From Candidatus Marinamargulisbacteria bacterium SCGC AG-343-D04 (lineage in GTDB: Bacteria; Margulisbacteria; Marinamargulisbacteria; GCA-2716485; GCA-002719695): a stretch of DNA of 64,000 nucleotides. Below are positions 4,465 through 25,769 of this stretch, one piece after another. Both the position numbers and the translations under genes were made by a program. The stretch spans positions 2,358 to 66,357 of the forward strand of contig QFBQ01000002.1 of assembly GCA_003265885.1 (NCBI GenBank), read 5' to 3'. Position 1 is the first letter of the stretch, and the number at the start of each line of letters is the position of its first letter. The notes beneath the pieces are model-generated. The model did not search any database and was not told the DNA's origin. It was given only the letters and a program-made list of their open reading frames with translations.

Positions 4465-4995
4465 ATGAAAAAAGAAACACTTTTAATTTTAGGATTAATT
4501 ATATTGGTGAGTTTATTTAGGTTTATACCTCATCCTCCCAATATGACGCCTGTAATAGCTATTAGTATTTTATCTGTGGCCTATTTTAATAAAAAATATT
4601 TACAATGGGGATTGCCATTATTAATTATGGTAATCACAGATGTCTTTCTTGGGTTTCATGCTTTAATTCCTTTTGTATATGGGGCCATCTTATTGGCAGG
4701 CCTGGGGGGGCATATACTAAGAAAAAAATATTCATTTATAAATAGTTTAGGAGTTAGTTTTCTTGGGTCTATTATCTTTTTCTTAGTTAGCAATTTTGGA
4801 GTATGGTTGGTCGGAGATATGTATCCAAAAACGATGACAGGTATCATAAGCTGTTATGTAGCGGCTATTCCTTTTTTTCATAATACACTCATTTCTACAT
4901 TAGCTGTTTTATCTGGGGTTGTTTTATTAAATATGTTTGTTGAACGCACACTTAAAAGTTCAGCGTCTGATTTAGCTAAAGATAATTCTTATTAA
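4465..4995 (+). CDS. small 5-6 TM membrane protein (recalled as DUF6580-like, ECF S-component-like); candidate inner-membrane B12 transporter by context
   Basis: 176 aa and hydrophobic throughout. Motifs are FIPHPPNMTPVIAISIL, SNFGVWLVGDMYPKT and CYVAAIPFFHNTL. It starts 51 nt after the riboswitch-controlled receptor on the same strand. The family name is from memory and the function is inferred from context only. Confidence 0.55.
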   Translation: MKKETLLILGLIILVSLFRFIPHPPNMTPVIAISILSVAYFNKKYLQWGLPLLIMVITDVFLGFHALIPFVYGAILLAGLGGHILRKKYSFINSLGVSFLGSIIFFLVSNFGVWLVGDMYPKTMTGIISCYVAAIPFFHNTLISTLAVLSGVVLLNMFVERTLKSSASDLAKDNSY

Positions 4996-6502
4996 TTAAT
5001 AGTTGTAATTGCTCATGTTTTTGAGCCTGATTTGTATTCTTATATAATCTCAGTAAGTTTTTATACGCTAAATCTAACTGTCCATATTGAATACTTTTAA
5101 TATAATGATCTTCAGCTAATTGGGGCTTTTTTTGATACTCAAATATAACACCAGCATTATTAAGAGCCATATCATAGGATTGATTGGGAGATTGTTGAAT
5201 GGAAATCAAAAAATACTCTAAGGCTTTGTCGTATTGCTTTTTTTTGTAATAGTAGACGCCTAAGTTATTAAGCATGACAAAACTCTTTGGTTCATGAATA
5301 AGATCGTTTTTATATAGTTTTTCTTCATTCCCCCAAAAACTATTTCTATGCAGAGTAGTTAGAGATAATAAAATGATTTGAATAAGTAGTAGTGGCAAAA
5401 TAATACGTTTATATTTTTCAAAATAACATTGAATGAGAAAAGTATAAATAATAATAATTCCAAATCCGGCAAAGGACAGCCAATGTTCTCTCAAAGTCGA
5501 GGCCAATGGGATGATAATATGAGTAACCGGCGCTAACCCGAAAATAAACCAGCTTAAGCCTATTATCATCCAGGCTCTATTACTCGATTTTTTTATTAAG
5601 AGAACTAAAGATATTAATAATACTACAAAAAGGCCACTATAGGGGTTTATGATGCTTTTTATGACAGTGTGATATTCCATATGGAGTGGATATGGAAAAA
5701 TAAGTAACTTTAGATATTCGATGATTATGTAAGGTAAGGTGTAGAGTCGTTCAAGAATAGAGGCTTCAGCAATATATGATAAAGATTTTTTGGAAACTGG
5801 GTACATGATGCGTACACATGCATACCCACCATAGATGACTGTATTAAATAGCAGCGTTTTTAGATAGGGAGTTTTAATGAAATAATGATAGATAAGAGCG
5901 ATTATAGGGAGTCCTATAATGTTTTCTTTGCATAAAAGTCCTGTTATAAATAAAAGTGTAATCCATAAGGGATTCCATTTGTTTGTGGATGCTTTGGTTA
6001 TGATTAGCATGATGCTAAATGCACATAGACTATATAAGAGATCTCCCCTACCTGATAAATAGCTTATGTTTTCTATATGAATAGGGTGAAGACAGTATAA
6101 TAATGTTATTAATAATCCTAGGATTCGCTTGAATTTAAACTGAATTAAGAGTAAATAGACAATATAACTATTGAGAATATGTATACTAATACTTGTTAAA
6201 TGAAACCCTTGAGGGTTCATTCCCCAAAGATAATAGTCCAGAATATAACTTGCACTTTGAATGGGCCTATAAAATGAAAGGGCTGTCCATTTTTCGCCAA
6301 AGACGGAGTGAGTAAAAATAGCTGCTATATTTCGAATATCTTTTATAAATGTATTGTTAACAATGATTTCAAGGTCATCCCAAATAAACGGGTGATAAAT
6401 AGTGTTTGCATATATCGTAATAATGGCAATGGATATGGTTGAAAATGCTATGAGCTTTTTGTCAAATAGCATATTTATAGCTTTGATAATTTTATTATTC
6501 AC
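4976..6502 (-). CDS. multi-pass membrane glycosyltransferase-like protein (PMT_2/TMTC-like) with C-terminal TPR repeats
   Basis: 508 aa. The N-terminus FIWDDLEIIVNN...FYRPI followed by about 10 TM segments resembles TMTC/DUF1736-type proteins. The C-terminus NNLGVYYYKKKQYDKALEYFLISIQ...ALNNAGVIFEYQKKPQLAEDHYIKSIQ is TPR-like. The start is either GTG 6502 or ATG 6472. The 3' end overlaps the previous gene tail-to-tail by 20 nt. Confidence 0.65.
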   Translation of the reverse strand: MNNKIIKAINMLFDKKLIAFSTISIAIITIYANTIYHPFIWDDLEIIVNNTFIKDIRNIAAIFTHSVFGEKWTALSFYRPIQSASYILDYYLWGMNPQGFHLTSISIHILNSYIVYLLLIQFKFKRILGLLITLLYCLHPIHIENISYLSGRGDLLYSLCAFSIMLIITKASTNKWNPLWITLLFITGLLCKENIIGLPIIALIYHYFIKTPYLKTLLFNTVIYGGYACVRIMYPVSKKSLSYIAEASILERLYTLPYIIIEYLKLLIFPYPLHMEYHTVIKSIINPYSGLFVVLLISLVLLIKKSSNRAWMIIGLSWFIFGLAPVTHIIIPLASTLREHWLSFAGFGIIIIYTFLIQCYFEKYKRIILPLLLIQIILLSLTTLHRNSFWGNEEKLYKNDLIHEPKSFVMLNNLGVYYYKKKQYDKALEYFLISIQQSPNQSYDMALNNAGVIFEYQKKPQLAEDHYIKSIQYGQLDLAYKNLLRLYKNTNQAQKHEQLQLLINKNYL

Positions 6503-8127: not shown

Positions 8128-9372
8128 TCACTGAAATGGTAAAAGTTTTTCAAACAACTTATTAAAACAGTTTATTAATGAATGTGATGGATCTTGTTTT
8201 TGATGGTGTAAAAAGGCTTTCTTTCCTAAAGATTCAACATGCTTAGGGTTTTGTAGATACTCGTATATTTTTTCTGCTAATTCTTGTGATGAATTTGGAT
8301 CTATAAGATCTCCTGTATTTTGAGGGACTATAGTTTCTAAACTTCCTCCTTCTTTGGCCGCTATTGTAGGTAAACTGTATGAAGCTGCTTCAATAGGAAT
8401 TAAACCCAAAGGCTCCACTCTTGAAACAGATATTACAAAATATGCAGATTTATATAGTAGATCTAACTTGTCATTGCTTAGAAAACCTTTGAAATTTATA
8501 AAAGATAAGACGTCTTGGTTTTTTGCGAAAATTTTCAGCTTTTCATCTAGCTCCCCTGTCCCAATAATATTTACTACAAAATCTTTTGGTTTTAGCTTAT
8601 ATTTTATTTTTAGTTCTTTAATGGCTTTGATGACAATATGAAGGTTTTTAAGCTTTTCTAAACGCGAAATAATGAGAATTTGCTTTTGATTAGTGAGAGG
8701 CTTTTCTTGGTTTTCTTTTTTCTTGTTTTTTAAAATGTTCCCAGGAAAATGTTGCGAGATAGCATCTCGCCCATAAATTTTTTTAACATTTTTTGCCGTA
8801 AATTGACTATTTGCTATCACTTCAGAAATCAAAGTGTTTACAGCGTCATTGTCTTTCTTAATTAGCCATTGCTGACGATTATCTTTTTTATGGCGAGCAT
8901 TTTTGGCTATGATTAAAGGGTTATCTAAAGCGGGGTCAAATTCTAAATTGACTAATCCATTATTAAGTTCTTCTTCATACAAACTTCTTGGCGGTTCATG
9001 GCAACTCCAAATGACCGGTGGGATGTTCTTTCTTTCGCCTTTTGAGGCATAGCTTAGCCATATATTTGCAGGGAAATTATGGCAGTTTATAATGTCATAA
9101 TTCTTTAGTAATGGCCTTATTCTTAAGCCCATAATCCATAAGTTTCGTCGAGCTGTATCATATCCTGGGATAAAGGGAGTTTTGATGGAAATCGTTTTGC
9201 AATGATTCCTATTTAGTTGAGTTTTTACTTCTTTTGAAAAACCGGCTGATATAATATCAACATGATGCCCTTCTTTAATCCATAATTTCGCCATATTTAA
9301 AATAACAACTTCGGCCCCACCTAAAATAGTCATTTTGGGATGTACTATGGCTATTTTGAGAGATTTTTTCAT
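8128..9372 (-). CDS. GT4-family glycosyltransferase
   Basis: 414 aa. The N-terminus is KIAIVHPKMTILGGAEVVILNMA. The C-terminal GT-B motif is SRVEPLGLIPIEAASYSLPTIAAKEGGSLETI (E-x7-E). It is the last gene of the nonulosonic-acid cluster. Confidence 0.8.
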   Translation of the reverse strand: MKKSLKIAIVHPKMTILGGAEVVILNMAKLWIKEGHHVDIISAGFSKEVKTQLNRNHCKTISIKTPFIPGYDTARRNLWIMGLRIRPLLKNYDIINCHNFPANIWLSYASKGERKNIPPVIWSCHEPPRSLYEEELNNGLVNLEFDPALDNPLIIAKNARHKKDNRQQWLIKKDNDAVNTLISEVIANSQFTAKNVKKIYGRDAISQHFPGNILKNKKKENQEKPLTNQKQILIISRLEKLKNLHIVIKAIKELKIKYKLKPKDFVVNIIGTGELDEKLKIFAKNQDVLSFINFKGFLSNDKLDLLYKSAYFVISVSRVEPLGLIPIEAASYSLPTIAAKEGGSLETIVPQNTGDLIDPNSSQELAEKIYEYLQNPKHVESLGKKAFLHHQKQDPSHSLINCFNKLFEKLLPFQ

Positions 9373-9379
9373 TCTAATA

Positions 9380-10411
9380 TCATGAAATCATTTCTAGATT
9401 TAATGGCGTTGCTTTTTTAATGTCTTTCTTAGCCTTCTTATTAAGCATATCTTCAAAATATTTTGGAGCTAAACCATCTCCTGGTCGAATGATTTTAATA
9501 TTGTCTTTTGTAAGAAACTCGCCTTTTTTAATATCTTTTACTACATAAATGGACCGTCTGAAGAGTTTTGATTTTTCTTCATTTTTAGATCCGCCGAACG
9601 ATACTTTACCTAATGCTAAATAGGCTTTTTCGACTTCCTCGACAAGTATTTTCATTTCCGCTGGTTCCATTGAAAACGCAGAATCTACGCCTCCTTCATC
9701 TCGTGATAAGGTGAAGTGTTTTTCTATTACTTTAGCTCCTAAAGCAATACTTGCTATTGCAACACCAATTCCTAATGTATGATCTGATAAACCTACGTCC
9801 ACATTAAATTGTGATTGTAGTTGGGGTATTGTTTTAAGATTGCAATCTTTTGGCGATGCTGGATATGTACTAGTACATTTTAAAAGGTATAGATTTTTGT
9901 TTCCATTTTCTTTTGCTGTGGTAACCATATCATGAATTTCTGATTCTGTAGCCATGCCTGTTGATATAATAAGTGGTTTTCCTGTTTGAGCGACTTTTTT
10001 AATTAATGGTAAATGTGTGTTTTCAAATGATGCGATTTTATAGGCCGGGACATTCAGTGATTCTAAAAAATCAACGGAGGTATCATCAAATGGTGTTGAA
10101 AAGCAATCAATTTGAAGATCTTTGCACTTTTTAAATATGGGTTCGTGCCATTCCCATGGAGTATGAGCTTTTTGATAAAGGTCATAGAGGGTTTCTCCAT
10201 GCCATAAACTATTTGGATCATTTATCTTAAATATACCTTCATTTGATTGAATGGTCATGGTATCTGCGGTATATGTTTGTATTTTTATAGCATCAACGCC
10301 AGTTTCAGCTGCAGCTTCTATAATTTTCATAGCTCTATCAAGTGATTGGTTGTGATTCCCTGACATTTCAGCAATAATATAAGGTTTTTCTAGATTATTT
10401 AGTTTAGTCAT
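9380..10411 (-). CDS. pseI: pseudaminic acid synthase (NeuB family with C-terminal SAF domain)
   Basis: 343 aa. Motifs are KPYIIAEMSGNHNQSLDRAMKIIEAAAETGVDAIKIQTYTADTMT and LSDHTLG, with a SAF-like C-terminus (RSIYVVKDIKKGEFLTKDNIKIIRPG). It is clustered with pseB, pseC and pseG. Confidence 0.88.
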   Translation of the reverse strand: MTKLNNLEKPYIIAEMSGNHNQSLDRAMKIIEAAAETGVDAIKIQTYTADTMTIQSNEGIFKINDPNSLWHGETLYDLYQKAHTPWEWHEPIFKKCKDLQIDCFSTPFDDTSVDFLESLNVPAYKIASFENTHLPLIKKVAQTGKPLIISTGMATESEIHDMVTTAKENGNKNLYLLKCTSTYPASPKDCNLKTIPQLQSQFNVDVGLSDHTLGIGVAIASIALGAKVIEKHFTLSRDEGGVDSAFSMEPAEMKILVEEVEKAYLALGKVSFGGSKNEEKSKLFRRSIYVVKDIKKGEFLTKDNIKIIRPGDGLAPKYFEDMLNKKAKKDIKKATPLNLEMIS

Positions 10412-10421
10412 ACGCTTTATT

Positions 10422-11942
10422 TTATATTATTTTTTTTCTAAATAATACTACTCTTTCTTTATTTTTATTATTGTGTTTATCGATAGTGACTTTTATTATA
10501 CTACGGTACTTTTTAAAACCTAGCTCTTTAAATGTATAAATTGATGATACGTTTGTTTCTTTTATTTCAGCTTTTATATATTCACACTCATTCCACTTTC
10601 TTTTTATTTTTATCAATCCTTCTTCTATGAGCACCTTCCCTAAACCGAGTCCTCGAAATTTTTTAGATATATATATATTTGCAATAATTGTTTTCTTTTG
10701 TTTCTCAAATCTTACTTGGCCTACAGTTTCGTCGTTGATTTTAAAAATATACATTTTACATCGTGTTGATTGTATTTTTCTTTTGAGCCATGTTTGATGT
10801 TCTTCCATCGAAATTTGTCTAGAATTAAAAGATTGTTGTCTTACTTCTGGATCGTTTATTAATTGTAGTAATATTAATTTATCTTTTAAATTTACGCTTT
10901 GAATACGAAGTTTAGGTTTTAAAATTAATTCTAGTTGAAGATGTTTTTTTAATTTAGATTTATGACCTATTTTTATATTCTGAATAATGGATGATCTTTT
11001 TTTTGAGCTCTTTAACTGATTAAAATACTTAATCGTTAATTGTGGATCTTTTTTTTCTTGAGTAAGAGCTAACGCTTCTTTTTTCAAATACTCAAGTAAG
11101 AATTTTTGATTTTCATAGTATTTAATAATAATTGATGGGGTTCGAAAAAGTAGAAGCTCATGTACAGTAGTTCCGCAGGCGGATATGGCGATATCAGTCT
11201 TTTTTAATAGAGTTGAATAATTATCGCTTGTGATATTGTTATGGATCTTTATAGTGCAATTCATTTCTTTTGAGTACTCTTCGATACTTTTTAGATTTGG
11301 GTTAATGGGGCTTATTAAAACGTGTACGATTAGATTTTGATTTATTTTGATATTCATATTCAAAATTTTTAGGGTAGCAAGAGTTTCATTGTTGCTATCT
11401 CCAGCCCCAAATACAACTAAAATATTTCTAATTTCTTTATTTATTTTGATATTTTTTTTATTTAATCTTAATTTTCGTCTAATTGCGGCAAATTGTGGAC
11501 CTAGTAGAAGTTTTGTATAACTCTCAGATGAGTATAGAGTATGCTCTTGAGTGTTTTGATTAATAATAATATCAGATACGAAATGATAAGGTGCGTAATC
11601 ATCAACACTTATGAGTTTGAAATCTGCCTTTTTTATTTTTTTTTGGTAATCTGTATGAAATTGGTAACCATCTAAGATTATCCATTTACAGCGTTCTTTT
11701 TTTGCAATTTCAATTGTGAATTCTGCATCTGACTCAATTGTCTTATCTGTTTTTTTAGGCCAAGAGATATAATTGATATTTTCACTTTTAAGCGTATCTA
11801 TTAACCCCTTACTCTCTGTTTGTGTTAATATAAAAGGATCTAAGTTCAAGTCTTGTAAATGTTGAGCAAAAGCGATTTGTCTTATTAAATGACCAGCTCC
11901 CATTTCTTTAGAGGCATCTGCTCTAATTAATATTTTTTCCAT
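10422..11942 (-). CDS. pseG: fusion of PseG-like UDP-sugar hydrolase and PseH-like GNAT N-acetyltransferase
   Basis: 506 aa. The N-terminal half is MEKILIRADASKEMGAGHLIRQIAFAQHL (PseG/SpsG-type). The C-terminal ~170 aa form a GNAT fold (VGQVRFEKQ...YISKKFRGLGLGKVLIEEG...NVSSIYTFKELGFKK). The start codon shares one nucleotide with the upstream stop (TAATG). Confidence 0.8.
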   Translation of the reverse strand: MEKILIRADASKEMGAGHLIRQIAFAQHLQDLNLDPFILTQTESKGLIDTLKSENINYISWPKKTDKTIESDAEFTIEIAKKERCKWIILDGYQFHTDYQKKIKKADFKLISVDDYAPYHFVSDIIINQNTQEHTLYSSESYTKLLLGPQFAAIRRKLRLNKKNIKINKEIRNILVVFGAGDSNNETLATLKILNMNIKINQNLIVHVLISPINPNLKSIEEYSKEMNCTIKIHNNITSDNYSTLLKKTDIAISACGTTVHELLLFRTPSIIIKYYENQKFLLEYLKKEALALTQEKKDPQLTIKYFNQLKSSKKRSSIIQNIKIGHKSKLKKHLQLELILKPKLRIQSVNLKDKLILLQLINDPEVRQQSFNSRQISMEEHQTWLKRKIQSTRCKMYIFKINDETVGQVRFEKQKKTIIANIYISKKFRGLGLGKVLIEEGLIKIKRKWNECEYIKAEIKETNVSSIYTFKELGFKKYRSIIKVTIDKHNNKNKERVVLFRKKII

Positions 11943-13243
11943 TATCTAACTTTAAATAACGTTTCAAGTTTTGAACAATTTAACATGTTTGAAATAGAAT
12001 TATTCGATAATCCCTTTAATACTTTATCAAAGTAATGTTCATAGGCTTTCATTAGAACATTAATATGTAATTTTGTATGTGCATAACTTATATTGTGAGA
12101 ACCTAAAGTTAAAATCCCTTTTCCAAACATTTCTTGCAATAACAATGTTTTTAATTCAAGTGAGGAGGAGTTCCTGCTATCTGCAATTTGCAAAAAAGAC
12201 CATGGAGCCAAGCCCGTTACAGAAAATATGTTTTTAAGTTTTTTTTGTTTGATTAATTCACCAAGTTCATTTTGAAGTAAGTTTCCAGTTTCCCATATTT
12301 TTTTAACTATAGGTTTTTCTTTTAGTTTATTTAATACAACTTTTGCGGCAGCTAAAGATAATGTTTCTCCACTAAATGTTCCTGAAAAAAAGATTTCTTC
12401 CATTAACATCATAATATCTTTTTTTCCGACAATTGCAGATAACGGGTACCCATTAGCAATTCCTTTTCCAAAAGTTGCTAAATCAGGAGTTACGTTAAAA
12501 TATTCTTGAGCTCCTCCATTTGCATATCTAAATCCAGTAATTGTCTCATCAAATATAAGAACACAATTATTTCTCTTTGCAATCTCCTGAACTTTTTGCA
12601 AGAAATCATCTTTAGGTTCTGTAATATTCATAGGCTCTAAAATAATTCCTGCAATTTTTTTAGGATGCTTATTAAAAATAGATTGTAACGATGAGATATC
12701 GTTATATTTAAATGTATGTGTCAATGCTTTGGTGGATTCTGGAATACCTAAATCTCTACTTGTAGATCCAATATACCAATCTTGCCAGCCATGATATCCG
12801 CATACTGCGATATGTTCTTTATTAGTGTAGGCTCTTGCAAGACGAATTGCTGCAGAAGTAGCGTCTGTTCCGTTTTTACCAAATCGAACCATTTCTGCAC
12901 AAGGTACCATTGCACAGATGAGTTCAGATACCTCACACTCTAAAGTTGTGGATAAGGAAAAGATAGTTCCTTTTTTTAATTGCTTTTGAACCTCTCTTGT
13001 AACATCTGGGTCATTATACCCTAGCGTAACTGAAGCTAAAGAATTTATAAAATCGATATATTCGTTACCATCAATATCATAAAGAAGGGCCCCGTTTGCA
13101 TGTGATGCAAAAAAAGGCGAAACCCCTATAGGAAATTGGGTTTTACTTTTACTAAATGTTTGAGCCCCTAAGGGAATGGTTTTTTCCGCTCTTTTTAGCC
13201 ATTTTTCTGATTTTGAATATCGTTGAATATCTTCTTTAGTCAT
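11942..13243 (-). CDS. class-III (glutamate-1-semialdehyde aminomutase-like) PLP aminotransferase
   Basis: The motifs FSKSKTQFP...GNEYIDF, GTDATSAAIRLARAYT, IFDETITGFR and TFGKGIANGYPLSA (PLP lysine context) are typical of the family. I place the start at ATG 13243 (MTKEDIQRY...). That gives an 8-nt overlap with the upstream stop, whereas the track start at 13273 would give 38 nt. Confidence 0.8.
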   Translation of the reverse strand: MTKEDIQRYSKSEKWLKRAEKTIPLGAQTFSKSKTQFPIGVSPFFASHANGALLYDIDGNEYIDFINSLASVTLGYNDPDVTREVQKQLKKGTIFSLSTTLECEVSELICAMVPCAEMVRFGKNGTDATSAAIRLARAYTNKEHIAVCGYHGWQDWYIGSTSRDLGIPESTKALTHTFKYNDISSLQSIFNKHPKKIAGIILEPMNITEPKDDFLQKVQEIAKRNNCVLIFDETITGFRYANGGAQEYFNVTPDLATFGKGIANGYPLSAIVGKKDIMMLMEEIFFSGTFSGETLSLAAAKVVLNKLKEKPIVKKIWETGNLLQNELGELIKQKKLKNIFSVTGLAPWSFLQIADSRNSSSLELKTLLLQEMFGKGILTLGSHNISYAHTKLHINVLMKAYEHYFDKVLKGLSNNSISNMLNCSKLETLFKVR

Positions 13244-14018
13244 ATTTATTATCTTTTTTATTATACCCTTCATTTCGAGGGATTTCTTTATTTATTTCCA
13301 ATAGTTCGGGCTTTTTCTCTAGGAGCTGAATAATGTCTCTAGTAGAAAAATTAGGATCTTTTACGTATAAAGCTTCATAAATTTTTGTGATGAACTCCAA
13401 ATCTTTTGCCTCATCTAATGTCCATCTATAATGAGAATAGTCTTCTTCTTGTTGAAAATTGCCGCATGAAAACAGATCTTTATTATCCCTAATGAATGGA
13501 GTGACATGTTCTCTTTCCATAGGTTTCTTCGCTTCTAAATAAGCTTTTTTTAATGCTGAAAATGTCATGACTTCAACATCCAGTCCATCAGGAAAGGTTT
13601 CAGGGAACCCATTACTTAGGTAATCAAATGATTGTGTTTTAAAATAGTGAATAGCATAGTCTATTAAATCAGGGTCATGTAACGGACAATCCCCTGTTAG
13701 ACGAACAATAATGTCTACTGAGTTACTGGATAAGGCGGCATGATAATATCTATCTAAAACATCGCTAGGGTGGCCACGAAAACATGTGATATTGCACTTT
13801 TTGCATATTTCTTCTAAGTAATTATCTTGCTCTAAATTTGTTGTTGCTACTAATAAATGATGTTCTGATTTTATTCGTTTCAGTCTTTCGATCATGAGCT
13901 CAAGAGTACTTTTGTTATTAATAATTTTTTTTCCCATTTTCCCCGGAAGTCGAGAGGACCCCATTCTTGCTTGAAGAATTATAAGTGTTTTTGATTTTTT
14001 TTGAACTAAATTATTCAT
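13236..14018 (-). CDS. SpsF-like cytidylyltransferase (probable CMP-nonulosonic acid synthetase of the cluster)
   Basis: 260 aa. Motifs are LIILQARMGSSRLPGKM and VRLTGDCPLHDPDLID, as in SpsF/FlmC-type acylneuraminate cytidylyltransferase-family proteins. No canonical PseF (PARGGSKR type) is present elsewhere in the cluster. Confidence 0.7.
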   Translation of the reverse strand: MNNLVQKKSKTLIILQARMGSSRLPGKMGKKIINNKSTLELMIERLKRIKSEHHLLVATTNLEQDNYLEEICKKCNITCFRGHPSDVLDRYYHAALSSNSVDIIVRLTGDCPLHDPDLIDYAIHYFKTQSFDYLSNGFPETFPDGLDVEVMTFSALKKAYLEAKKPMEREHVTPFIRDNKDLFSCGNFQQEEDYSHYRWTLDEAKDLEFITKIYEALYVKDPNFSTRDIIQLLEKKPELLEINKEIPRNEGYNKKDNKYD

Positions 14019-14136
14019 GATTTCTATTATATGTGTATTGTGTTTGATTGTCCAAATTAGTAGAAAACTTTTTTCTGAAAATGGTGAGATTTATGAAGAA
14101 ATGATATTATACATTAAAAATATTAAGGAACTATTT

Positions 14137-15216
14137 ATGAATCTAATCTATAAAAATGATCCCTCATTTGATGATTTGTTTGAAAGTATTCAAATTACAT
14201 TTTCTAATATGACTTATGCGTATACTACATTGATTCAAAACTATTTTTCTATATACTCTAATATTAAAGAGAATCTTTCATTTATTATAGAAATTGATAA
14301 TAAACCGGTAGCATTCTGTCCATTATTTTTGGAAATTAATAATTCTCAAAACATGTTTACTTTATCTCAGAGTTTTTTACCTGCCCCACTTTTTTTTCCG
14401 GGATTGGGACAAAAAATAATGAATAAAGTTACAACTTTATTAATGGCCACTATTGATGAGTTAGCATTTCGCTATGATGTAACTAAGCACTGTGTAAGAA
14501 TTGACCCTTTACTTGATTATGATGGAGTTTCATCTAACTGGCTCCTTAAATATGGATATCTTGGAACATCTATTCATACTCAAATTTTAGATTTAAGAAA
14601 ACCTTTATCTGATATTTTTTCAAAAGTAAGTAAGGGCCATAAAAGTGATATTAAAAAGGCTCAAAAGCATTTTTCTGTTTATGTTTGGGATAGGACAAAT
14701 GCTGATTTTGAATGTTTTGAAAATTACAGAAAACTTCATCATAAAGCTGCAGGGAAAGTGACTAGACCTCTAGAAACTTTTTCCCTTCAGTTTGAAGGTA
14801 TTAAGCAAGATAAAGCTATTCTAGTTGGTATAAAATATAAAGAGGACTGGATTGCATATTCGTATTTTTCTCATGTAAATAATTGTATTTATTATGGTTC
14901 TGCTTCGGATGATCCTGACTTTTCAGAATTACCAGCTTCTTGTGGGCATCTGCAGTTATGGACTGCTATAGAGTATTATCATCAGCGAGGGTTTCATTTT
15001 CTGGAGACAGGCTGGCAACATTATGGGCCTCAGCTTTTAGATTATCCGTCTGCTAAGGAAATTCATATTTCAAAATTCAAAAAAGGTTTTGGGGGAGAAA
15101 CCTTGCCTTTTTTTAGAGCAGTAAAATACTACTCTGAGAAAGCTTTCATTGAAGATGTCGATACTTTCAAACAAAAACAACTGGAGTTTATCAATTCCAC
15201 TCAGAAGGATTTGTGA
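14137..15216 (+). CDS. FemAB-family-like (GNAT-fold) aminoacyl/acyl transferase
   Basis: The central and C-terminal regions (KGHKSDIKKAQK...NYRKLHHKAAGK...ILVGIKYKEDWIAYSYF...IYYGSASD...LQLWTAIEYYHQRGFHFLETG) resemble FemA/FemB/FemX-type transferases. This is a weak motif-level call. I moved the start to ATG 14137, which has an AAGGAA RBS 8 nt upstream. It is the only + strand gene inside the cluster. Confidence 0.55.
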   Translation: MNLIYKNDPSFDDLFESIQITFSNMTYAYTTLIQNYFSIYSNIKENLSFIIEIDNKPVAFCPLFLEINNSQNMFTLSQSFLPAPLFFPGLGQKIMNKVTTLLMATIDELAFRYDVTKHCVRIDPLLDYDGVSSNWLLKYGYLGTSIHTQILDLRKPLSDIFSKVSKGHKSDIKKAQKHFSVYVWDRTNADFECFENYRKLHHKAAGKVTRPLETFSLQFEGIKQDKAILVGIKYKEDWIAYSYFSHVNNCIYYGSASDDPDFSELPASCGHLQLWTAIEYYHQRGFHFLETGWQHYGPQLLDYPSAKEIHISKFKKGFGGETLPFFRAVKYYSEKAFIEDVDTFKQKQLEFINSTQKDL

Positions 15217-16114
15217 TTTGTGGATATAAAAATGGGGCTATTTTTTTTCGAATGTTTTCGCAATCTTTTAAACTAAGTGTTTTCCTATCAAACAACTTTA
15301 TATTTTGCCTCAGTTGATTTTTGTTGTCTACGCCAATAACTAATGGGCATTGAATTGTATGTGCAATGTCAAATGCAAGTTCCTTTCTTGACTTATTAAG
15401 TTCATAAGATACTTTATTCCATTCATTGGATAGTTGAAAGGCGTTATTCATCTTCTTTTTTACATCATCTGGGCTCATTAATAATAATCCTTGCAAAAAA
15501 ATACTTCTTATAAAACATAATGTATTTTTTTGAATGGCTAATTGTTGAATTTCTTTTGTAAGAAATCGTTGATCCCAGGCATTAAAAGGCATTTGTATAA
15601 AATCTATTTTGGGATTATTAATGGCTGTTTTAGCGGCCTCTATACTATAAAGGGAAACGCCTGCAAACTGAATTAATTTTTCTTCTTTAGCTCTATCAAT
15701 GACAGGTTGAATGTGTTTCCACAGATCCAACCAAGTTTCATCATGCGCCATTATTCCCCATAGAGGAGCTCCAAGTCTATTTACTGATTTTTTAATGGAG
15801 TGGTATAGTTCTTCTCCATTGTTTGGATCTAATTGAGGATCCCACTTGCTAATGACGTTGACTTGTTTTTGTAGAGATTTTTTTTTAAAAGCTTCTCCTA
15901 ATAAAGTCTCTGAGTCCCCATAAGCTTGGGCTGTGTCAAAAAAGCATATCCCATGATCTATAGCATCTTCGACTATTTGAAAAATCTCTTTATTTTTGGG
16001 TTTTCCAGACGTATTTGAAATGCCATAGTCTAATCCTAACTGAACAGTTCCTAAGACAAATTGGGGGATTTCAATCCCTCGCCATTGAATTGACCTAATC
16101 AATCTTTTAGACAT
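15191..16114 (-). CDS. aldo/keto reductase
   Basis: 307 aa. Motifs LGTVQLGLDYG and FFDTAQAYGDSETLLGEAF indicate an AKR fold. It overlaps the pseC stop by 16 nt and the convergent FemAB-like gene by 26 nt. Confidence 0.8.
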   Translation of the reverse strand: MSKRLIRSIQWRGIEIPQFVLGTVQLGLDYGISNTSGKPKNKEIFQIVEDAIDHGICFFDTAQAYGDSETLLGEAFKKKSLQKQVNVISKWDPQLDPNNGEELYHSIKKSVNRLGAPLWGIMAHDETWLDLWKHIQPVIDRAKEEKLIQFAGVSLYSIEAAKTAINNPKIDFIQMPFNAWDQRFLTKEIQQLAIQKNTLCFIRSIFLQGLLLMSPDDVKKKMNNAFQLSNEWNKVSYELNKSRKELAFDIAHTIQCPLVIGVDNKNQLRQNIKLFDRKTLSLKDCENIRKKIAPFLYPQITNPSEWN

Positions 16115-17241
16115 TTTATAGCTGAAACTACGGTTTTAATATCAGTTTCAGACATTTTCGGAAAAATAGGTATACTGAGAGCTTTACTATAATACTCTTC
16201 ACAGTTCGGAAAGTGCTTTTGTTTATACCCTAATTGTTTATAATAAGGCTGCTTATAAACAGGGATATAATGTACTTGAGACCCTATACCCTTTTCTTTT
16301 AACTCTTGCATAACTTCTTGACGTGTCTTTCCAATCATTTGATAGTCAATAGATGTAACATATAAGTGATAGGAAGATTCATCAGTTTTTGTGTCTAAAA
16401 TGTTGACCCCATCAATATTATTAAACTCTTTATTATATATACCTGCAATATGTTGACGTTTTTGTGTGAATGTCTTTAATTTTTTTAGTTGTGAAATTCC
16501 TAGAGCTGCTTGTATATCTGTTAATCTATAGTTATATCCTAAAAGTTGCATTTCATAATACCAAGGACCTTCATTATCTTTTAGTTTACTTTCTTCTTTT
16601 GTAATACCATGACTTCTCAACATCACTAATTTATCATAGAGTTCTTTGTCATTTGTTGTTATTGCCCCTCCTTCTCCTGTTGCGATAGGTTTTACAGGAT
16701 GAAAGCTAAAGGTACACATATCGGAAAACTCACAGTTTCCAATGGGTTTTCCATTATAACTTCCTCCAAGAGCATGGCTTCCATCTTCAATGATTTTTGT
16801 GTCGAATTCTTCTGCAATGCGATGAATTTTTTTCATATTACAACTTTGACCAGCAAAATGAACTGGAATAATAACTCGAGTATCTTTTGAAATAAGCTTG
16901 ACTATATTGTTGGGATCAATATTTCCTGTTTTATTATCTATATCTGCAAATAAAACTTTGCTTCCACAATATAATGCTGAATTACTGGTAGCAACAAATG
17001 TATTAGGCGTAGTGATGACGTTATGAGTGTTATTGGTTTTGCACGCAAGCATTGCTAAGTGTAGTGCGGCAGTTCCGTTAGAAACAGCTACTGCATATTT
17101 AGCTCCCGTAAACTCACATAGAGCTTCTTCAAATTCTTTAACTTTTGGCCCTTGAGTTAAATAAGGGCTTCTTAAAGTGTTTATAACTGTCTGAATATCT
17201 TCTTCATCAACACTTTGACATGAATATGGTAAGAAAGACAT
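16099..17241 (-). CDS. pseC: DegT/DnrJ/EryC1-family aminotransferase, PseC-like (UDP-4-amino-4,6-dideoxy-N-acetyl-beta-L-altrosamine transaminase)
   Basis: 380 aa. FLPYSCQSVDEEDIQTVINTLRSPYLTQGPKVKEFEEAL...AVSNGTAALHLA matches the PseC N-terminal pattern. SFHPVKPI gives the PLP lysine context. It lies directly downstream of pseB. Confidence 0.85.
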   Translation of the reverse strand: MSFLPYSCQSVDEEDIQTVINTLRSPYLTQGPKVKEFEEALCEFTGAKYAVAVSNGTAALHLAMLACKTNNTHNVITTPNTFVATSNSALYCGSKVLFADIDNKTGNIDPNNIVKLISKDTRVIIPVHFAGQSCNMKKIHRIAEEFDTKIIEDGSHALGGSYNGKPIGNCEFSDMCTFSFHPVKPIATGEGGAITTNDKELYDKLVMLRSHGITKEESKLKDNEGPWYYEMQLLGYNYRLTDIQAALGISQLKKLKTFTQKRQHIAGIYNKEFNNIDGVNILDTKTDESSYHLYVTSIDYQMIGKTRQEVMQELKEKGIGSQVHYIPVYKQPYYKQLGYKQKHFPNCEEYYSKALSIPIFPKMSETDIKTVVSAIKCLKD

Positions 17242-17256
17242 GTTATATGAGTATCA

Positions 17257-18237
<981 letters not shown>

Positions 18238-18323
18238 TCATTAATCCAATTATAGTTTTGAGTGTTAAAATTAATTATATTAGTATAGCTTTAAATATAT
18301 ATAAAATCTAGTAAACGACAGTG

Positions 18324-19724
18324 TTATATTGAAGCTAAAATGGAATTAACTACTAGTTTTGTATTATATGATTCATCAAAACAAGTGAGCAAGCTTTTAT
18401 AATCCCTATCTACAAGTCCGTCTCCAAAGTGCTCTGTTAGAGATCTTACTTCTTTTTGAATATCAATGTCATTATTCTTCCATGATACTACTTCTTCATA
18501 AGTCACTTTATTTTTATACCAAAAAACACCAGGCAAGTTGTTGTACCATGCATAACCAAATGTTATTAATGGTTTTTTCATTTGTATCGCTTCCCACCCA
18601 GTATTTCCTGATGAGAGTGCTACGCATTGACAATTTTTGATTAGTTCAAAAGAGCTAAATTTTCCAGAAATAAGTGTGGTATTTCGGATGTTATTTAGCC
18701 GTTCAAAAAAGCCAGTGCTTCTCATGGATTCCATTTGCTTTGGGTTTTCTTTAATATAAATTTTTACATTCTTAGGTATCCATCGTGATACCGTCTCAAT
18801 AATTTTCACTTGCTCTGTATAGTTTCCCCCTAAAGTTGCGGATGATAATTCGGGTTGGTATGGTAATGGTATGTAGACATAAGGCACTGAAAGGTCAACC
18901 TTGTTTTTACTGTAGGTTTTCATATTTTGTATATAGGTTTTTAATATAGGTATTCTAAATCTCCTGCCATTGGCATCTAAGAAATGTGCTATGTGGCTAA
19001 AATTTCCTATTAAGAAAGAAATAATGAGTTTTATTTTATTTTCTTTAAGCAAGCTTTCGAGAGAAAAGTTTTTTTTCAATTCTTTTAATGAAAACACGGC
19101 ATCTTCAATGTTAGTCATATAGAAAAGTTTTGCTGGTTTTCCTGAAAATTCATACTTATAGTTACTTTTTTTGTATAACTTAGGTCTTGTTTGAGTAATA
19201 TTTCCAAATTCTTCAATGGAGTTGATAATAATAAATTTTCCAGGGAAAATAGTTTGCATACATAATCGTGTTTTTATGTTTAGTATTTTAGCCATTTTAT
19301 AAAGTACAAAATCGGCTCCTTCATGAAAAATATTTGCATGAATAACTAAATTAATGTTTTCACGAGTTAATTTTTCATAAAAAAAATGAACTAACCGATA
19401 GAATAAGTAGATATCATCATCTACAGATCTTGAAATAACTTTTTCATTTGCACAAAAGTTTATTTGATGACGCACCTGCATTAATAAAAATTCTTCTAAA
19501 AACTTTTGGGCCTTTATTATTATATCCTCAGGAGCTAGAGGGGTTTTTTCGATTTTTTGAAATATAAATAAGTCATCGTAGTAGTATATTAATGCCTTTG
19601 ACCAAGGAATCTTGTGGCGAGTTTGCTTTACCCATACTTTAATATTTAGATCACCCTTCTTTTCTAATTCCCTGAGAATATTAGGATTACATTTATTATC
19701 AAAGCCCCAAGCAAAAACATTCAC
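18324..19724 (-). CDS. putative GT-B-like polysaccharide/nonulosonic-acid transferase, paralog 1
   Basis: 466 aa with a GTG start overlapping the upstream stop (GTGA). It shares with its neighbour the motifs HEG.D.VLY, Y[VI][YP][FL]P[LY][HQ].QPELS..TLG, IY[IV]KENP.Q.ES, SG.[TA]GWE and KKP...FG.AWY. This layout resembles capsule-biosynthesis-type GT-B transferases, but I cannot name the family. Confidence 0.45.
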   Translation of the reverse strand: MNVFAWGFDNKCNPNILRELEKKGDLNIKVWVKQTRHKIPWSKALIYYYDDLFIFQKIEKTPLAPEDIIIKAQKFLEEFLLMQVRHQINFCANEKVISRSVDDDIYLFYRLVHFFYEKLTRENINLVIHANIFHEGADFVLYKMAKILNIKTRLCMQTIFPGKFIIINSIEEFGNITQTRPKLYKKSNYKYEFSGKPAKLFYMTNIEDAVFSLKELKKNFSLESLLKENKIKLIISFLIGNFSHIAHFLDANGRRFRIPILKTYIQNMKTYSKNKVDLSVPYVYIPLPYQPELSSATLGGNYTEQVKIIETVSRWIPKNVKIYIKENPKQMESMRSTGFFERLNNIRNTTLISGKFSSFELIKNCQCVALSSGNTGWEAIQMKKPLITFGYAWYNNLPGVFWYKNKVTYEEVVSWKNNDIDIQKEVRSLTEHFGDGLVDRDYKSLLTCFDESYNTKLVVNSILASI

Positions 19725-21124
19725 TGTTGAATTTTTTTTCGAAGAATATCTATCAAAGCTTTTTGATTATTTGATTCATTGTAACTGGAATAATTAGCGG
19801 TATATGCTTCATAAAATATTCCGTCAAAGAACTTTGATGTAATAGAAGCTATTTCTTTTTTTAATAAGTTCAGATCTATTTTTGTTGTAGTGATGCTTTC
19901 ATAAGTTGGATTATTCCTAATATGAAAAATCCCAGGCAAAGGTTTATACCAAGCTAATCCAAAAATTAATGCTGGTTTTTTTAATAATATAGATTCCCAC
20001 CCTGCTGTTCCAGATATGGTAGCCGTGAACTCTGCATTTTTAATTAAAGATATCGAATCTATTTCGTGATCTAAAAGAACTACATTTTTGATTTGGAATA
20101 ATCTATCAAAAAAATCTATAGGACGATGAGATTCCCATTGATAAGGATTTTCTTTAACATAAATTTTTACATTTTCAGGGATCAGTCCAGATAATTCTTC
20201 AATGGGTCTGAGTTGGTCGTAGTATTTGTCTCCTAAAGTATCTGTAGATAATTCAGGTTGTAAATGTAAGGGGAAATAAACATATTTGTCGTTCTTATTT
20301 ATTTTTTTTGTTGCATATTTTTTGTATAATTCAATATACTTTTTTAACTTTGTAATTCGTGATCCAGGTCCACGATTATTTAAAACACTAGATATCGCTT
20401 TATATTCTCCTAAAATCATAAATTTAATTAATTTCCATTTATGTTTTTTTATATACTCTTTAAATGTATAGTTGTTCTTCAACTCATCTAACTGAGTCTC
20501 CGCAGAGATTGTTTTCTTCATATAAAATGGTTTTTGTAAAAAAGTATCAATATTTATATCGATTGGTTTAGATACAATTGGCATGTTTTTGTCTGACATT
20601 TCAATATCTTCAATATTATTGATACATAGACATTTGTTTGGGAAAATTGTCTGATATAACAACAGCGTTTTAACTTTTAAAGCTTTTGCTACGATATATA
20701 AAACATAATCTGGTCCTTCGTGTGGAAAATTGTTAAATATTACAAGATTAATTTTTTTGCTCTTTAGAATCGAATAAAAATAATGAATTAATCGATAATA
20801 CAAGTGGTAATCATCGTATATATTGCGAGTTACAACGCATTCTAGAGGGTATTTATGAATTTGATGGCGAGAATTCATAACCATAAAACGAAACCTACAG
20901 GGCTCTAATTCATCAAATAGATCTAACGGAGGGTTGTTATCTTCAATTTTAAATTTATTTTGGATATATAAGTCGTAATAGAGGTCTGTTTTTTCACACT
21001 TTAACTTTGGTGTCTCGCTACAATCATGGATCCAATATTTTGGATCAATGATCTTTTGTTTTTTTAGTTCAATTAAAACATTTATTAATAAGGGACTGCT
21101 AAATCCATGTATTGCTGCATTCAT
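19721..21124 (-). CDS. putative GT-B-like polysaccharide/nonulosonic-acid transferase, paralog 2
   Basis: 467 aa, colinear with and clearly homologous to 18324-19724 (same motif set, for example YVYFPLHLQPELSTDTLG, ISGTAGWESILLKKPALIFGLAWY). It is the first gene of the minus-strand cluster. Confidence 0.45.
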   Translation of the reverse strand: MNAAIHGFSSPLLINVLIELKKQKIIDPKYWIHDCSETPKLKCEKTDLYYDLYIQNKFKIEDNNPPLDLFDELEPCRFRFMVMNSRHQIHKYPLECVVTRNIYDDYHLYYRLIHYFYSILKSKKINLVIFNNFPHEGPDYVLYIVAKALKVKTLLLYQTIFPNKCLCINNIEDIEMSDKNMPIVSKPIDINIDTFLQKPFYMKKTISAETQLDELKNNYTFKEYIKKHKWKLIKFMILGEYKAISSVLNNRGPGSRITKLKKYIELYKKYATKKINKNDKYVYFPLHLQPELSTDTLGDKYYDQLRPIEELSGLIPENVKIYVKENPYQWESHRPIDFFDRLFQIKNVVLLDHEIDSISLIKNAEFTATISGTAGWESILLKKPALIFGLAWYKPLPGIFHIRNNPTYESITTTKIDLNLLKKEIASITSKFFDGIFYEAYTANYSSYNESNNQKALIDILRKKIQQ

Positions 21125-22107: not shown

Positions 22108-22182
22108 TGGTAGCCCTACGGGGATTCGAACCCCGGCTGCCAGGATGAAAACCTGGTGTCCTAACCCCTAGACGATAGGGCC
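22108..22182 (-). tRNA. tRNA-Glu (anticodon UUC), CCA encoded
   Basis: The reverse complement reads GGCCCTATCGTCTAGGGGTTAGGACACCAGGTTTTCATCCTGGCAGCCGGGGTTCGAATCCCCGTAGGGCTACCA. It folds by hand into a cloverleaf: 7-bp acceptor stem (G1-U72 wobble), D stem GTCT/GGAC, anticodon stem CCAGG/CCTGG with loop TTTTCAT (anticodon TTC), and T arm CGGGG-TTCGAAT-CCCCG. Confidence 0.9.
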
Positions 22183-22228: not shown

Positions 22229-22275
22229 TAATTTTCTTGCAAGTTTCTTTGAAAAACTTTCGTAATTCTATTGTC

Positions 22276-23028
22276 ATGATAGAACAAGTATGGGGGAACT
22301 CGAATCAGCGTGTGCAACAACACGTATTTTCTGAAAGGTATTCTGAACAGGATTTCTCCCTTCATGATTCCGATCAATTTCATAATTCCGATTACGACTC
22401 TCCTCCCAAAAATGAATTTGGTTTTGATTTTTCTCATTCTACTCTTGGGGAAAACAATAACCTTGATAGCTTTTTGTCTTCTTTAAAACCCTCTCACTCT
22501 AATACAATGTTCCAATTTCGGGATAATGCCATTAATGACAATGGATTTGTTAAACTCTGTAATTTTCTCAAAAATGATACTACGGTGAAACATCTCATAT
22601 TAGATCAAAATCAAATTATTATCTCAGAATTTGCGAAAGCCGCTGTTATGGACATGCTTAAAGTGAATCACTATATTGGGTGGCTTGTCTTAAGTGGTAA
22701 CGCGATTAGTAATATCGGGGCAGGCTATCTTGCTGAAGCTTTAAAAGATAATACATCGCTTAAACATCTTATTCTTTCCGATAACGATATTGGAAATGAA
22801 GGGATCACTTCCTTGTTAATTTCTCTAAAAGATCACCCTACCCTCGAATCTCTTTTTATTTCTGGAAACCCATTTGATGAAGGTGTTTTCCCAGAACTCT
22901 GTACATTTATTTCTGAATCAAGATCTCTTAAACGTGTTGACATTAGATCTTTGGATCTTTCTGCTTCAAACCTTTGTCATCTTCTTGCATTATGTCAAAA
23001 GCATTGTGTAAGATTAATGTATGAATGA
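22276..23028 (+). CDS. leucine-rich-repeat protein, ribonuclease-inhibitor (RI/NLR) type, eukaryote-like
   Basis: It carries about five ~28-residue repeats of the RI type (TVKHLILDQNQI..., WLVLSGNAISNIGAGYLAEALKDNTSLKHLILSDNDIGNEGITSLLISLKDHPTLESLFISGNPF). These follow an ~85-aa Ser/Asn/Asp/Phe-rich N-terminus. The start is uncertain (track TTG 22237, first ATG 22276). The stop overlaps the next gene's ATG by 8 nt. Confidence 0.7.
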   Translation: MIEQVWGNSNQRVQQHVFSERYSEQDFSLHDSDQFHNSDYDSPPKNEFGFDFSHSTLGENNNLDSFLSSLKPSHSNTMFQFRDNAINDNGFVKLCNFLKNDTTVKHLILDQNQIIISEFAKAAVMDMLKVNHYIGWLVLSGNAISNIGAGYLAEALKDNTSLKHLILSDNDIGNEGITSLLISLKDHPTLESLFISGNPFDEGVFPELCTFISESRSLKRVDIRSLDLSASNLCHLLALCQKHCVRLMYE

Positions 23029-24897: not shown

Positions 24898-24929
24898 ACA
24901 TAATAAATAAAAATTTGATTAGAGAGGGT

Positions 24930-25766
24930 ATGGGAATGACAACAATAACAAAGCAAACATGGAAGACGGTTAAAACGTATACAGATATCTTGTATGAAAA
25001 ACAAGAAGGGATTGCAAAACTTACAATTAATCGACCGGAAGTTAGGAACGCTTTTCGACCATTAACCGTTTCTGAGTTGATGGATGCTTTAGATCATGCA
25101 CGCATGGATGATGAAGTTGGGGTAATTATTTTAACTGGTTATGGAGAAAAGGCTTTTTGTTCTGGGGGAGATCAAAAAATTCGTGGAGATAAAGGGTATA
25201 AAGATGGTTCTGGGACCATGCATTTAAATGTTTTAGAATTTCAGCGTCGTATTCGGACTTGCCCTAAACCAGTTGTAGCTATGATTGCTGGGTATGCTAT
25301 TGGAGGTGGTCATATTTTACATATGATATGCGATATCTCAATTGCAGCTGATAATGCTATTTTCGGACAAACTGGTCCAAAGGTAGGGTCTTTTGATGGA
25401 GGCTATGGGGCTAGCTATATGGCTCGTATTGTAGGTCAAAAGAAGGCACGAGAAATTTGGTTTTTGTGCAGACAATATTCAGCACAAGAAGCGCTTGATA
25501 TGGGTTTAGTTAATAAAGTTGTGTCTTATGATCAACTGGAGACTGAAACTGTTCAGTGGTGCCAAGAGATTCTTCAACACTCTCCTATGGCTATTCGTTG
25601 TTTAAAATCGGCCTTAAATGCAGATTGTGATGGACAAGCTGGGTTACAGGAGTTAGCTGGGAATGCGACGATGTTGTTTTATATGTCTGAAGAAGGACAA
25701 GAAGGACGAAATGCGTTTAATGAAAAACGTAAACCAGATTTCAAAAAATTTGGAAGACAACCCTAA
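24930..25766 (+). CDS. menB: 1,4-dihydroxy-2-naphthoyl-CoA synthase
   Basis: Crotonase fold with [60 protein letters not shown] and [17 protein letters not shown]. The start is ambiguous (TTG 24915, ATG 24930 or ATG 24936); an AGAGAGGG purine run lies at 24921-24928. Confidence 0.9.
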
Positions 25767-25769
25767 AAT

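Follow-up and report, generated by a model that had tools for sequence, protein, structure and literature searches.

A predicted pseudaminic acid-type biosynthesis cluster with accessory genes of uncharacterized role in a marine Margulisbacteria genome

Layout of the gene cluster

A 64,000-nt stretch of DNA (the window) from contig QFBQ01000002.1 of the single amplified genome (SAG) SCGC AG-343-D04, assigned to Candidatus Marinamargulisbacteria, was analyzed with respect to a gene cluster at positions 8128-21124. A pathway to the nonulosonic acid pseudaminic acid (Pse) had been proposed for this cluster from the sequence alone (hereafter the original prediction). The origin of the window was confirmed by protein searches, in which window proteins were 100% identical to contig proteins of this SAG. 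The cluster is filled by ten open reading frames (ORFs) on the minus strand and a single ORF on the plus strand, as presented in Table 1. Co-directional genes overlap by 1-16 nt, the convergent junction between the aldo-keto reductase (AKR) gene and the FemX-like gene overlaps by 26 nt, and the gaps measure 7-101 nt. Both the gene list and the gene order of the original prediction were borne out by the ORFs and by the Pfam and NCBIfam assignments.

Table 1. Genes and a promoter-like match in the cluster at positions 8128-21124, listed from the highest to the lowest coordinates of the window.
Feature	Position	Strand	Supporting evidence
KpsS/KpsC-like GT-B glycosyltransferase, paralog A (Kps2)	19721..21124	-	PF05159 Capsule_synth, 30 bits
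KpsS/KpsC-like GT-B glycosyltransferase, paralog B (Kps1)	18324..19724	-	PF05159, 33 bits
PseB, inverting UDP-GlcNAc 4,6-dehydratase	17257..18222	-	TIGR03589, 502 bits
PseC, UDP-4-amino-4,6-dideoxy-L-AltNAc transaminase	16099..17241	-	TIGR03588, 529 bits
Aldo-keto reductase (AKR)	15191..16114	-	Pfam Aldo_ket_red, 80 bits
FemX-like tandem-GNAT transferase	14137..15216 (mechanical ORF from 14017)	+	TIGR04421, 89 bits; predicted fold
Sigma-70-like match TGGACA-17-TATAAT, just upstream of the CT start	14026..14054	-	11/12 matches
FlmC/SpsF-type cytidylyltransferase (CT)	13236..14018	-	CTP_transf_3, 94 bits; homology to C. crescentus FlmC
Class-III (glutamate-1-semialdehyde aminomutase-like) pyridoxal phosphate enzyme (AT)	11942..13243	-	Aminotran_3, 184 bits
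PseG UDP-sugar hydrolase fused to a GNAT domain	10422..11942	-	TIGR03590, 187 bits; GNAT families of Pfam
PseI, pseudaminic acid synthase	9380..10411	-	TIGR03586, 507 bits
GT4 glycosyltransferase, last gene of the block	8128..9372	-	Glycos_transf_1, 106 bits; Glyco_transf_4, 59 bits

Core enzymes of pseudaminic acid biosynthesis

Family membership was assigned using the curated equivalog models of NCBIfam, each with its own cut-off, together with Pfam. Four proteins passed equivalog models of Pse biosynthesis, namely PseB (cut-off 407.75 bits), PseC (423.5 bits), PseG (153.55 bits, matched by residues 3-284 of the fusion protein) and PseI (340 bits). The models of the related pathways stayed below cut-off, with scores of 58 bits for PseB to LegB, 243 bits for PseC to LegC (cut-off 420) and 319 bits for PseI to NeuB_NnaB (cut-off 399.65). 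By this comparison, which the original prediction had itself proposed, the cluster is of the pseudaminic type and not of the legionaminic or neuraminic type. The C-terminal domain of the PseG fusion passed Pfam GNAT families, and the same PseG-GNAT fusion recurs across many related loci. A PseH role for this domain is plausible.

Relative to the canonical Pse pathway of Campylobacter and Helicobacter, the cluster retains the four equivalogs and the six-step logic. It differs in that an FlmC/SpsF-type CT would take the place of PseF, a divergent GNAT domain is fused to PseG, and an extra reductase, a class-III aminotransferase and a FemX-like gene are present. The sps pathway of Bacillus subtilis (SpsM, C, D, G, E, F) resembles the cluster in its SpsF-type CT and in a PseG-like hydrolase acting on UDP-linked intermediates (PMC7439481). 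However, the sps product is legionaminic acid, whereas the dehydratase, aminotransferase and synthase encoded here match Pse equivalogs.

A reductase and an aminotransferase in a conserved operon

At least 554 loci encoding AT homologs were identified, taking one genome per species. Eighty of these (L005-L084) were retained and searched with the window proteins, and gene counts were made on the 56 loci flanked on either side by 6 kb or more. The retained loci span Bacteroidota, many Proteobacteria, Cyanobacteria, Bacillota, Nitrospirota, Acidobacteriota, Elusimicrobia and others; a short archaeal-binned contig was also among them. Genes for CT (53/56), PseC (51/56), PseB and AKR (49/56 each), and PseI and PseG (45/56 each) were found in most loci, and all seven genes were present in 30. 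The usual order, PseB-PseC-AKR-CT-AT-PseG(-GNAT)-PseI, is also that of the window, and the CT gene lies directly upstream of the AT gene in 46 of the 56 loci. Identity of the AT was 53-65% over all homologs across phyla (53-62% in the 80 loci), a degree of conservation which is unusually high for an enzyme of uncharacterized role. In loci L016, L019, L022 and L068 a left-handed beta-helix acetyltransferase is encoded at the usual position of the reductase.

Fusions among the homologs join AT to CT (frequently) and PseB to AKR (L060), and in the Pse cluster of Vibrio sp. B9-25K2 NeuA is replaced by a CT-AKR fusion (PMC7371886). The same set of genes, given as PseG, a glutamate-1-semialdehyde (GSA) aminomutase, a cytidylyltransferase, an AKR, DegT, CapD, a "capsule polysaccharide biosynthesis protein" and NeuB, was tabulated without functional comment for the lipopolysaccharide locus of Legionella pneumophila Sg6/Sg12 (PMC3694923). 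In the literature searched, the AKR/AT/CT trio was met in genome-comparison mentions only, and biochemistry was not found.

With respect to the two enzymes themselves, the AT scored 384 bits with NF004856, below the cut-off of 486, and its K260, which lies in an FGKG motif and is invariant in a 14-sequence alignment, is taken to be the lysine that binds pyridoxal phosphate. The AKR tetrad D60/Y65/K90/H124 is conserved across 39 homologs, and judging by these residues both enzymes look catalytically competent. Sequence matches of the AT in the PDB were only to GSA aminomutases, sugar C-6' aminotransferases and D-phenylglycine aminotransferase, and for the AKR no PDB sequence match was found at E <= 1e-8. 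We also considered whether the class-III enzyme adds an amine that needs a second N-acyltransferase; one candidate N-acyltransferase was present in 27 of the 56 loci, two or more in 19 and none in 10, which leans against this idea.

The cluster matches the AKR-CT-AT Pse clusters of Chryseolinea soli, Janthinobacterium, Methylomonas, Nostoc, Priestia, Legionella Sg6/Sg12 and Vibrio in gene set and mostly in order. It differs from them in the inverted FemX-like gene inside the operon, in the two tandem PF05159 transferases and in having no Wzx, Wzy or ABC exporter gene nearby. The block is a phylogenetically remote case of a common operon layout and is mostly ordinary.

The cytidylyltransferase

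The CT aligned with FlmC of Caulobacter crescentus over the full length (residues 12-239 versus 3-229) with 38% identity and an E value of 4e-49, for which the coding sequence of FlmC was taken from a synthetic operon given in the supplement of PMC7591256. In that eLife study of Caulobacter flagellin glycosylation, FlmC was without homology to PseF and acted as the sixth-step enzyme in the reconstitution of flagellin pseudaminylation in E. coli, its own cytidylyltransferase activity being deduced from this experiment (PMC7591256). In B. subtilis, spsF was required for transfer of legionaminic acid and dispensable for its synthesis (PMC7439481). In the PDB, the CT matched 6OEW (E 2e-46).

A role for the CT other than activation, with a separate PseF or NeuA encoded nearby, was considered and dropped. 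No cytidylyltransferase of another type was detected in the 80 related loci by phmmer with the window CT (a second copy of the same type was found in three), and the Pfam gene tables of the Chryseolinea soli and Oceanobacillus loci agreed, each with a single CTP_transf_3 gene. Because of the homology to FlmC, the genetics of SpsF (PMC7439481) and the lone CT in related loci, the FlmC/SpsF-type enzyme is likely the CMP-Pse synthetase and, by analogy, a functional counterpart of PseF. The originally proposed use of an SpsF-type enzyme for CMP activation is therefore plausible. The Caulobacter flagellin system is alike in its non-PseF cytidylyltransferase, but there Pse is moved onto flagellins by FlmG, in which tetratricopeptide repeats (TPR) are combined with a GT-B domain, whereas the present cluster encodes KpsC/KpsS-like and GT4 transferases together with a reductase and an aminotransferase.

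The embedded FemX-like gene

The deposited annotation of the plus-strand gene (DID78_00450, 399 aa) takes the longest ORF, which overlaps the divergent CT start. Because homologs are about 355 aa long (with PF13480 and PF02388) and homology begins about 35-85 residues into the long ORF, the start is probably M41 at 14137 and not 14017, which would leave about 118 nt for divergent promoters. The promoter-like match at the CT start (Table 1) tops the regional scan, yet the total number of matches was 69 versus 74 in shuffled sequence; it is possibly, though weakly so, an internal promoter for CT-AT-PseG-PseI-GT4.

The score of the protein with TIGR04421 (FemAB_IMCC1989), 89 bits, stays below the cut-off of 250 bits. 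Its AlphaFold2 (AF2) model had a predicted local distance difference test (pLDDT) value of 95, and the top fold match was FemX of Weissella, with a template modeling (TM) score of 0.68-0.72 and an E value of 5e-15, followed by the aminoacyl-tRNA-dependent synthases Sbb17 and Sba18 and then by FemA and aminoacyl-phosphatidylglycerol synthases. The enzyme is a candidate acyltransferase dependent on aminoacyl-tRNA and probably adds an aminoacyl group, from a presumed donor, to the sugar or the glycan as presumed acceptor. A FemX-like gene is found in about 6 of the 56 related loci, follows PseI in a few related loci and also occurs in a second Pse-type cluster of Margulisiibacteriota.

This second cluster (L087, positions 1-21068 of a metagenome-assembled genome (MAG), ENA ERZ27247322) has a PseB-PseC-AKR-CT-AT head followed by a methyltransferase, an AP_endonuc_2 protein, NeuB, an epimerase, a metallophosphatase, an ATP-grasp protein and the FemX-like protein. 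Further on lie two PF27859 (LIC12162) proteins, a formyltransferase-like protein, PIG-L, PF27889 (PLP_IMCC1989) and a second CTP_transf_3. It looks like a far more elaborate tailoring set.

Candidate transferases and the acceptor

The two PF05159 paralogs are 39% identical over their full length, and paralog A is 100% identical to DID78_00475 of the SAG. An AF2 model of the 467-aa paralog A, built from 42 homologs, had a pLDDT of 90 and a GT-B fold. Foldseek comparison with the PDB returned GT-B proteins including the beta-Kdo transferases WbbB (GT99) and KpsC (GT107) at E values of about 1e-6. When the family profile was compared, KpsC (E 2.3e-8) and WbbB (E 4e-3) were matched in the C-terminal nucleotide-sugar-binding region; the family K-E-N-P aligns with K-V-H-P of KpsC, with K324, E325 and P327 invariant and N326 nearly so. 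The likeness to KpsC and WbbB lies in the GT-B fold and this C-terminal region; the sequence similarity to KpsC spans just about 75 residues.

In a recent JBC paper, KpsS1 of Acinetobacter baumannii, a relative of KpsC and KpsS, is described as a retaining Pse5Ac7Ac transferase and the founding member of GT118 (PMC12887879). KpsS1 likewise adjoins pse genes, in a K locus, but it is one enzyme whereas two tandem paralogs are found here. By position and ancestry, the two PF05159 paralogs are the best candidates for pseudaminyltransferases, with a donor specificity that we infer by analogy.

Orthologs of both paralogs occur in the same tandem order in a marine MAG (L001, GCA_902591055.1, 1965-7974), where the genes immediately upstream encode an MsbA-like ABC exporter, a GT2 and a 206-aa protein without a Pfam match; these partners are absent from the window. 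Remoter homologs lie in polysaccharide loci with NeuB. In Chryseolinea soli the arrangement is PseB-AKR-PseC-methyltransferase-CT-AT-PseG/GNAT-NeuB, followed by Wzx, a PF05159 protein, Wzy and a GT4. Polysaccharide loci of the Wzx/Wzy-dependent kind are laid out in this way, and mainly for this reason we favor a glycan or a glycolipid as the acceptor. The GT4 of the present cluster has no predicted transmembrane segment. A Pfam scan of window ORFs of at least 100 aa revealed neither Maf (PF01973) nor an FlmG-type gene (TPR then GT-B), which makes flagellin and pilin acceptors less likely, and no flagellar genes were found within the 64-kb window.

A 508-aa protein encoded 1.6 kb from the cluster (4976-6502, minus strand) is predicted to have about nine transmembrane helices within residues 1-390; a WDD motif lies early in the sequence and a TPR part, the only one detected by Pfam and NCBIfam, at the C-terminus. 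In architecture the protein recalls membrane glycosyltransferases of the GT-C type (PMT/ArnT/TMTC-like). As an analog of FlmG it was ruled out, given that the TPR is C-terminal and follows the transmembrane helices.

Source organism and lifestyle

The SAG, labeled AG3B, comprises 1.58 Mb with 35.5% G+C, is about 65% complete and was obtained from a cell sorted from seawater at 180 m depth in the Southeast Pacific (Matheus Carnevali et al. supplement). In the AG3B column of the KEGG Orthology (KO) table, FliP, FliN and FlgC are rated reliable, FliF and FliG are present but carry a length flag, and PilB, PilC and PilD are likewise listed; Margulisbacteria were called motile via polar flagella by the same authors (Matheus Carnevali et al.). 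The class also includes Ruthmannia eludens, which lives inside the cells of Trichoplax as a symbiont (PMC6784892). The window itself encodes housekeeping and biosynthetic functions, among them leuA, leuB, PRA-CH of the histidine pathway, hemB, men genes, cysS and glutamine synthetase III, as well as a TonB-dependent receptor. Given the seawater origin of the cell, the flagellar and type IV pilus genes of the KO table and this gene content, the premise of the original prediction that the organism is host-associated, non-flagellated and intracellular was not supported, and the organism is taken to be a free-living marine bacterium.

A leucine-rich-repeat protein of 263 aa (LRR_6, 22237-23028, plus strand, no NCBIfam match) is encoded beside a tRNA-Glu gene and may be one feature that had been read as a hint of host association.

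Proposed pathway and alternatives

We consider it probable that the block directs formation of CMP-activated Pse, or a close derivative, from UDP-N-acetylglucosamine and its transfer to a lipid-linked or polysaccharide acceptor. In the proposed pathway PseB would carry out the inverting 4,6-dehydration and PseC the transamination at C4. The GNAT domain fused to PseG would then N-acylate the new amine in the role of PseH, PseG would strip the UDP, PseI would join the hexose with phosphoenolpyruvate, and the FlmC/SpsF-type CT would form the CMP-sugar. The two soluble GT-B paralogs, as relatives of KpsC, KpsS and WbbB, could act as pseudaminyltransferases by analogy with A. baumannii KpsS1 (GT118), and together with the GT4 they may build a Pse surface glycan, be it an O-antigen-like or capsule-like polymer, a glycolipid or a lipid-linked oligosaccharide. 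Since the Caulobacter system needs neither an AKR nor an AT, these two enzymes would be accessory to CMP-Pse formation; together with the FemX-like enzyme they most likely tailor the sugar.

A number of observations weigh against this proposal. Two of the six steps rest on analogy: the GNAT domain (residues 345-488) scored 49.2 bits with the PseH equivalog TIGR03585, whose cut-off is 93.1, and for the CT no PseF model was among the NCBIfam matches at E <= 1e-5, which comprised just weak KdsB-type matches. The original description of the cluster as complete therefore holds for PseB, PseC, PseG and PseI and not for the PseH and PseF models, and that of a pseG-pseH fusion holds for its PseG part while the GNAT part stays below the PseH cut-off; the pathway would be complete only if the GNAT domain is accepted for PseH and the FlmC-type enzyme for PseF. 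For the transferase, the TM scores of the Foldseek matches were low (0.2-0.47), and the His of the HP motif of KpsC is not kept, being Asn in the transferase family. Neither the cluster nor the 64-kb window encodes a Wzx, a Wzy, an ABC exporter or an initiating phosphoglycosyltransferase. Furthermore, the flagellar and pilus genes of the organism would allow for a protein acceptor, and the AKR and AT could alter the product away from Pse5Ac7Ac.

In an alternative, the end product is a further modified nonulosonate rather than Pse itself, the reductase oxidizing a hydroxyl, the class-III enzyme transaminating the product and the FemX-like enzyme adding an amino acid from aminoacyl-tRNA. Such an outcome seems quite unlikely to us, although the tight AKR-CT-AT module with its adjacent CT and AT genes, the fusions AT-CT, PseB-AKR and CT-AKR, and the conserved AKR tetrad and AT lysine all speak for it. 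An order of this kind is reportedly followed in the 8-amino-Kdo route of Shewanella, where the transaminase KdnA acts after the oxidase KdnB. The oxidase KdnB is named as the first step to 8-amino-Kdo in a passage of PMC5125639 citing Gattis 2013, and an 8-amino-pentadeoxy-manno-nonulosonic acid is found in the O-antigen of Flexibacter maritimus (PMC3210612). The fold of the FemX-like protein, moreover, resembles Sbb17 and Sba18, which were crystallized with streptothrisamine bound. On the other hand, the Caulobacter reconstitution needed FlmC only, without a reductase or class-III enzyme (PMC7591256), AKRs usually reduce and do not oxidize, the many loci with a single N-acyltransferase candidate imply that an extra acylated amine is not general, and the FemX-like gene is confined to few loci. 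A more explicit version, with AKR-CT-AT as a tailoring unit in which oxidation and then transamination are coupled to CMP activation and convert Pse to, for example, an 8-amino nonulosonate similar to that of F. maritimus, which the FemX-like enzyme then aminoacylates from aminoacyl-tRNA, would have to be called very unlikely; if true, the module would represent an uncharacterized branch of nonulosonic acid biosynthesis with a very wide distribution. We know of no precedent for tRNA-dependent aminoacylation of this sugar class.

With respect to the acceptor, it might be flagellin or type IV pilin that is O-glycosylated with the CMP-sugar, as happens in Campylobacter, Aeromonas and Caulobacter, in place of a polysaccharide or glycolipid. 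The flagellar and pilus entries of the KO table, the description of Margulisbacteria as polar-flagellated and the FlmC type of the CT are consistent with this use, and the membrane protein at 4976-6502 could be a GT-C-type protein glycosyltransferase. We nevertheless regard it as rather unlikely, since the window has neither a Maf or FlmG-like protein nor a flagellar gene, lipids and glycans are the known acceptors in the KpsC/KpsS/WbbB superfamily, of which the cluster transferases are members (PMC12887879), and the near-identical Chryseolinea cluster is accompanied by Wzx and Wzy.

Composition and origin of the block

The cluster has 31.2% G+C as compared with 34.4% in the rest of the window and 35.5% in the assembly. 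Per-gene G+C and G+C at third codon positions (GC3) were lower in the cluster (Mann-Whitney p of about 0.001 and about 0.004, respectively). A dip in the G+C profile of the window, as originally predicted, is thus real though it amounts to about 3 points; the 60-nt spot counts on which it had been based were numerically right (26.7% and 36.7%) and unrepresentative. The low-G+C zone extends from about 2 kb to 21 kb without sharp edges and takes in flanking non-glycan genes. Codon usage gave a mixed picture, with no difference in per-gene distance from the window average (p = 0.44) and a pooled distance that ranks third of 45 contiguous 11-gene blocks. A tRNA-Glu gene (22108-22182, minus strand) lies about 1 kb beyond the end of the cluster. 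No integrase or transposase was found around the cluster, and flanking repeats were just short and at chance level.

From these results, the claim of a compositionally distinct, possibly acquired block is upheld as to the small dip and not as to a sharp border, mobility marks or a per-gene codon shift. Recent acquisition is possible, and the composition, the pooled codon-usage shift, the nearby tRNA gene and the nearest AT homolog of named source, which is from the Bacteroidota (Cyclobacteriaceae, 64% identity), would fit a recently acquired genomic island. That the block is such an island nevertheless appears unlikely, as the dip is small and spreads over flanking housekeeping-type genes, per-gene codon distance is unchanged, and integrase, transposase and flanking direct repeats were not found. 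Furthermore, a second Margulisiibacteriota genome shares the five-gene head, and a related marine MAG shares the transferase pair. An AT-rich composition is common in surface-glycan loci without recent transfer.

Other genes in the window

Two adjacent plus-strand genes at 31772-33952 and 34134-36137 encode proteins of 726 and 667 aa, in which a PF04488 DXD-motif glycosyltransferase region at about residues 150-230 is the sole recognizable feature, with no transmembrane segments and no NCBIfam match. An unusually long second AKR-domain protein of 461 aa, with the domain in its first 245 residues, is encoded at 41685-43070 (minus strand), overlapping a HAD phosphatase gene at 41050-41718 (minus strand), and as far as seen is unconnected to the Pse cluster. 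The men genes named in the original prediction were found at 24915-28386 (plus strand), where a MenB-like enoyl-CoA hydratase, MenC and a MenE-like AMP-binding enzyme are encoded, with a small ArsC-family gene (25770-26102) between MenB and MenC.

Significance

The comparison of loci shows that the Pse operon, in its most broadly conserved form, includes two enzymes of uncharacterized role, which are often fused to the CT or to PseB. The interest of this AKR/AT pair and of the FemX-like accessory gene is a property of the whole family and not specific to the window. The gap is readily testable in the culturable carriers Janthinobacterium, Priestia megaterium and Chryseolinea soli, and the roles of the two enzymes matter both for genome-based prediction of glycans and for the enzymatic making of CMP-Pse. 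For the Marinamargulisbacteria candidate phylum no description of a nonulosonic acid was found in the literature searched and, as far as that search shows, the cluster is the first Pse-type example noted in Margulisbacteria. In this candidate phylum without cultured members, the cluster predicts a sialic-acid-like surface sugar on a pelagic member, and such a sugar would bear on recognition by phages and grazers in the ocean.

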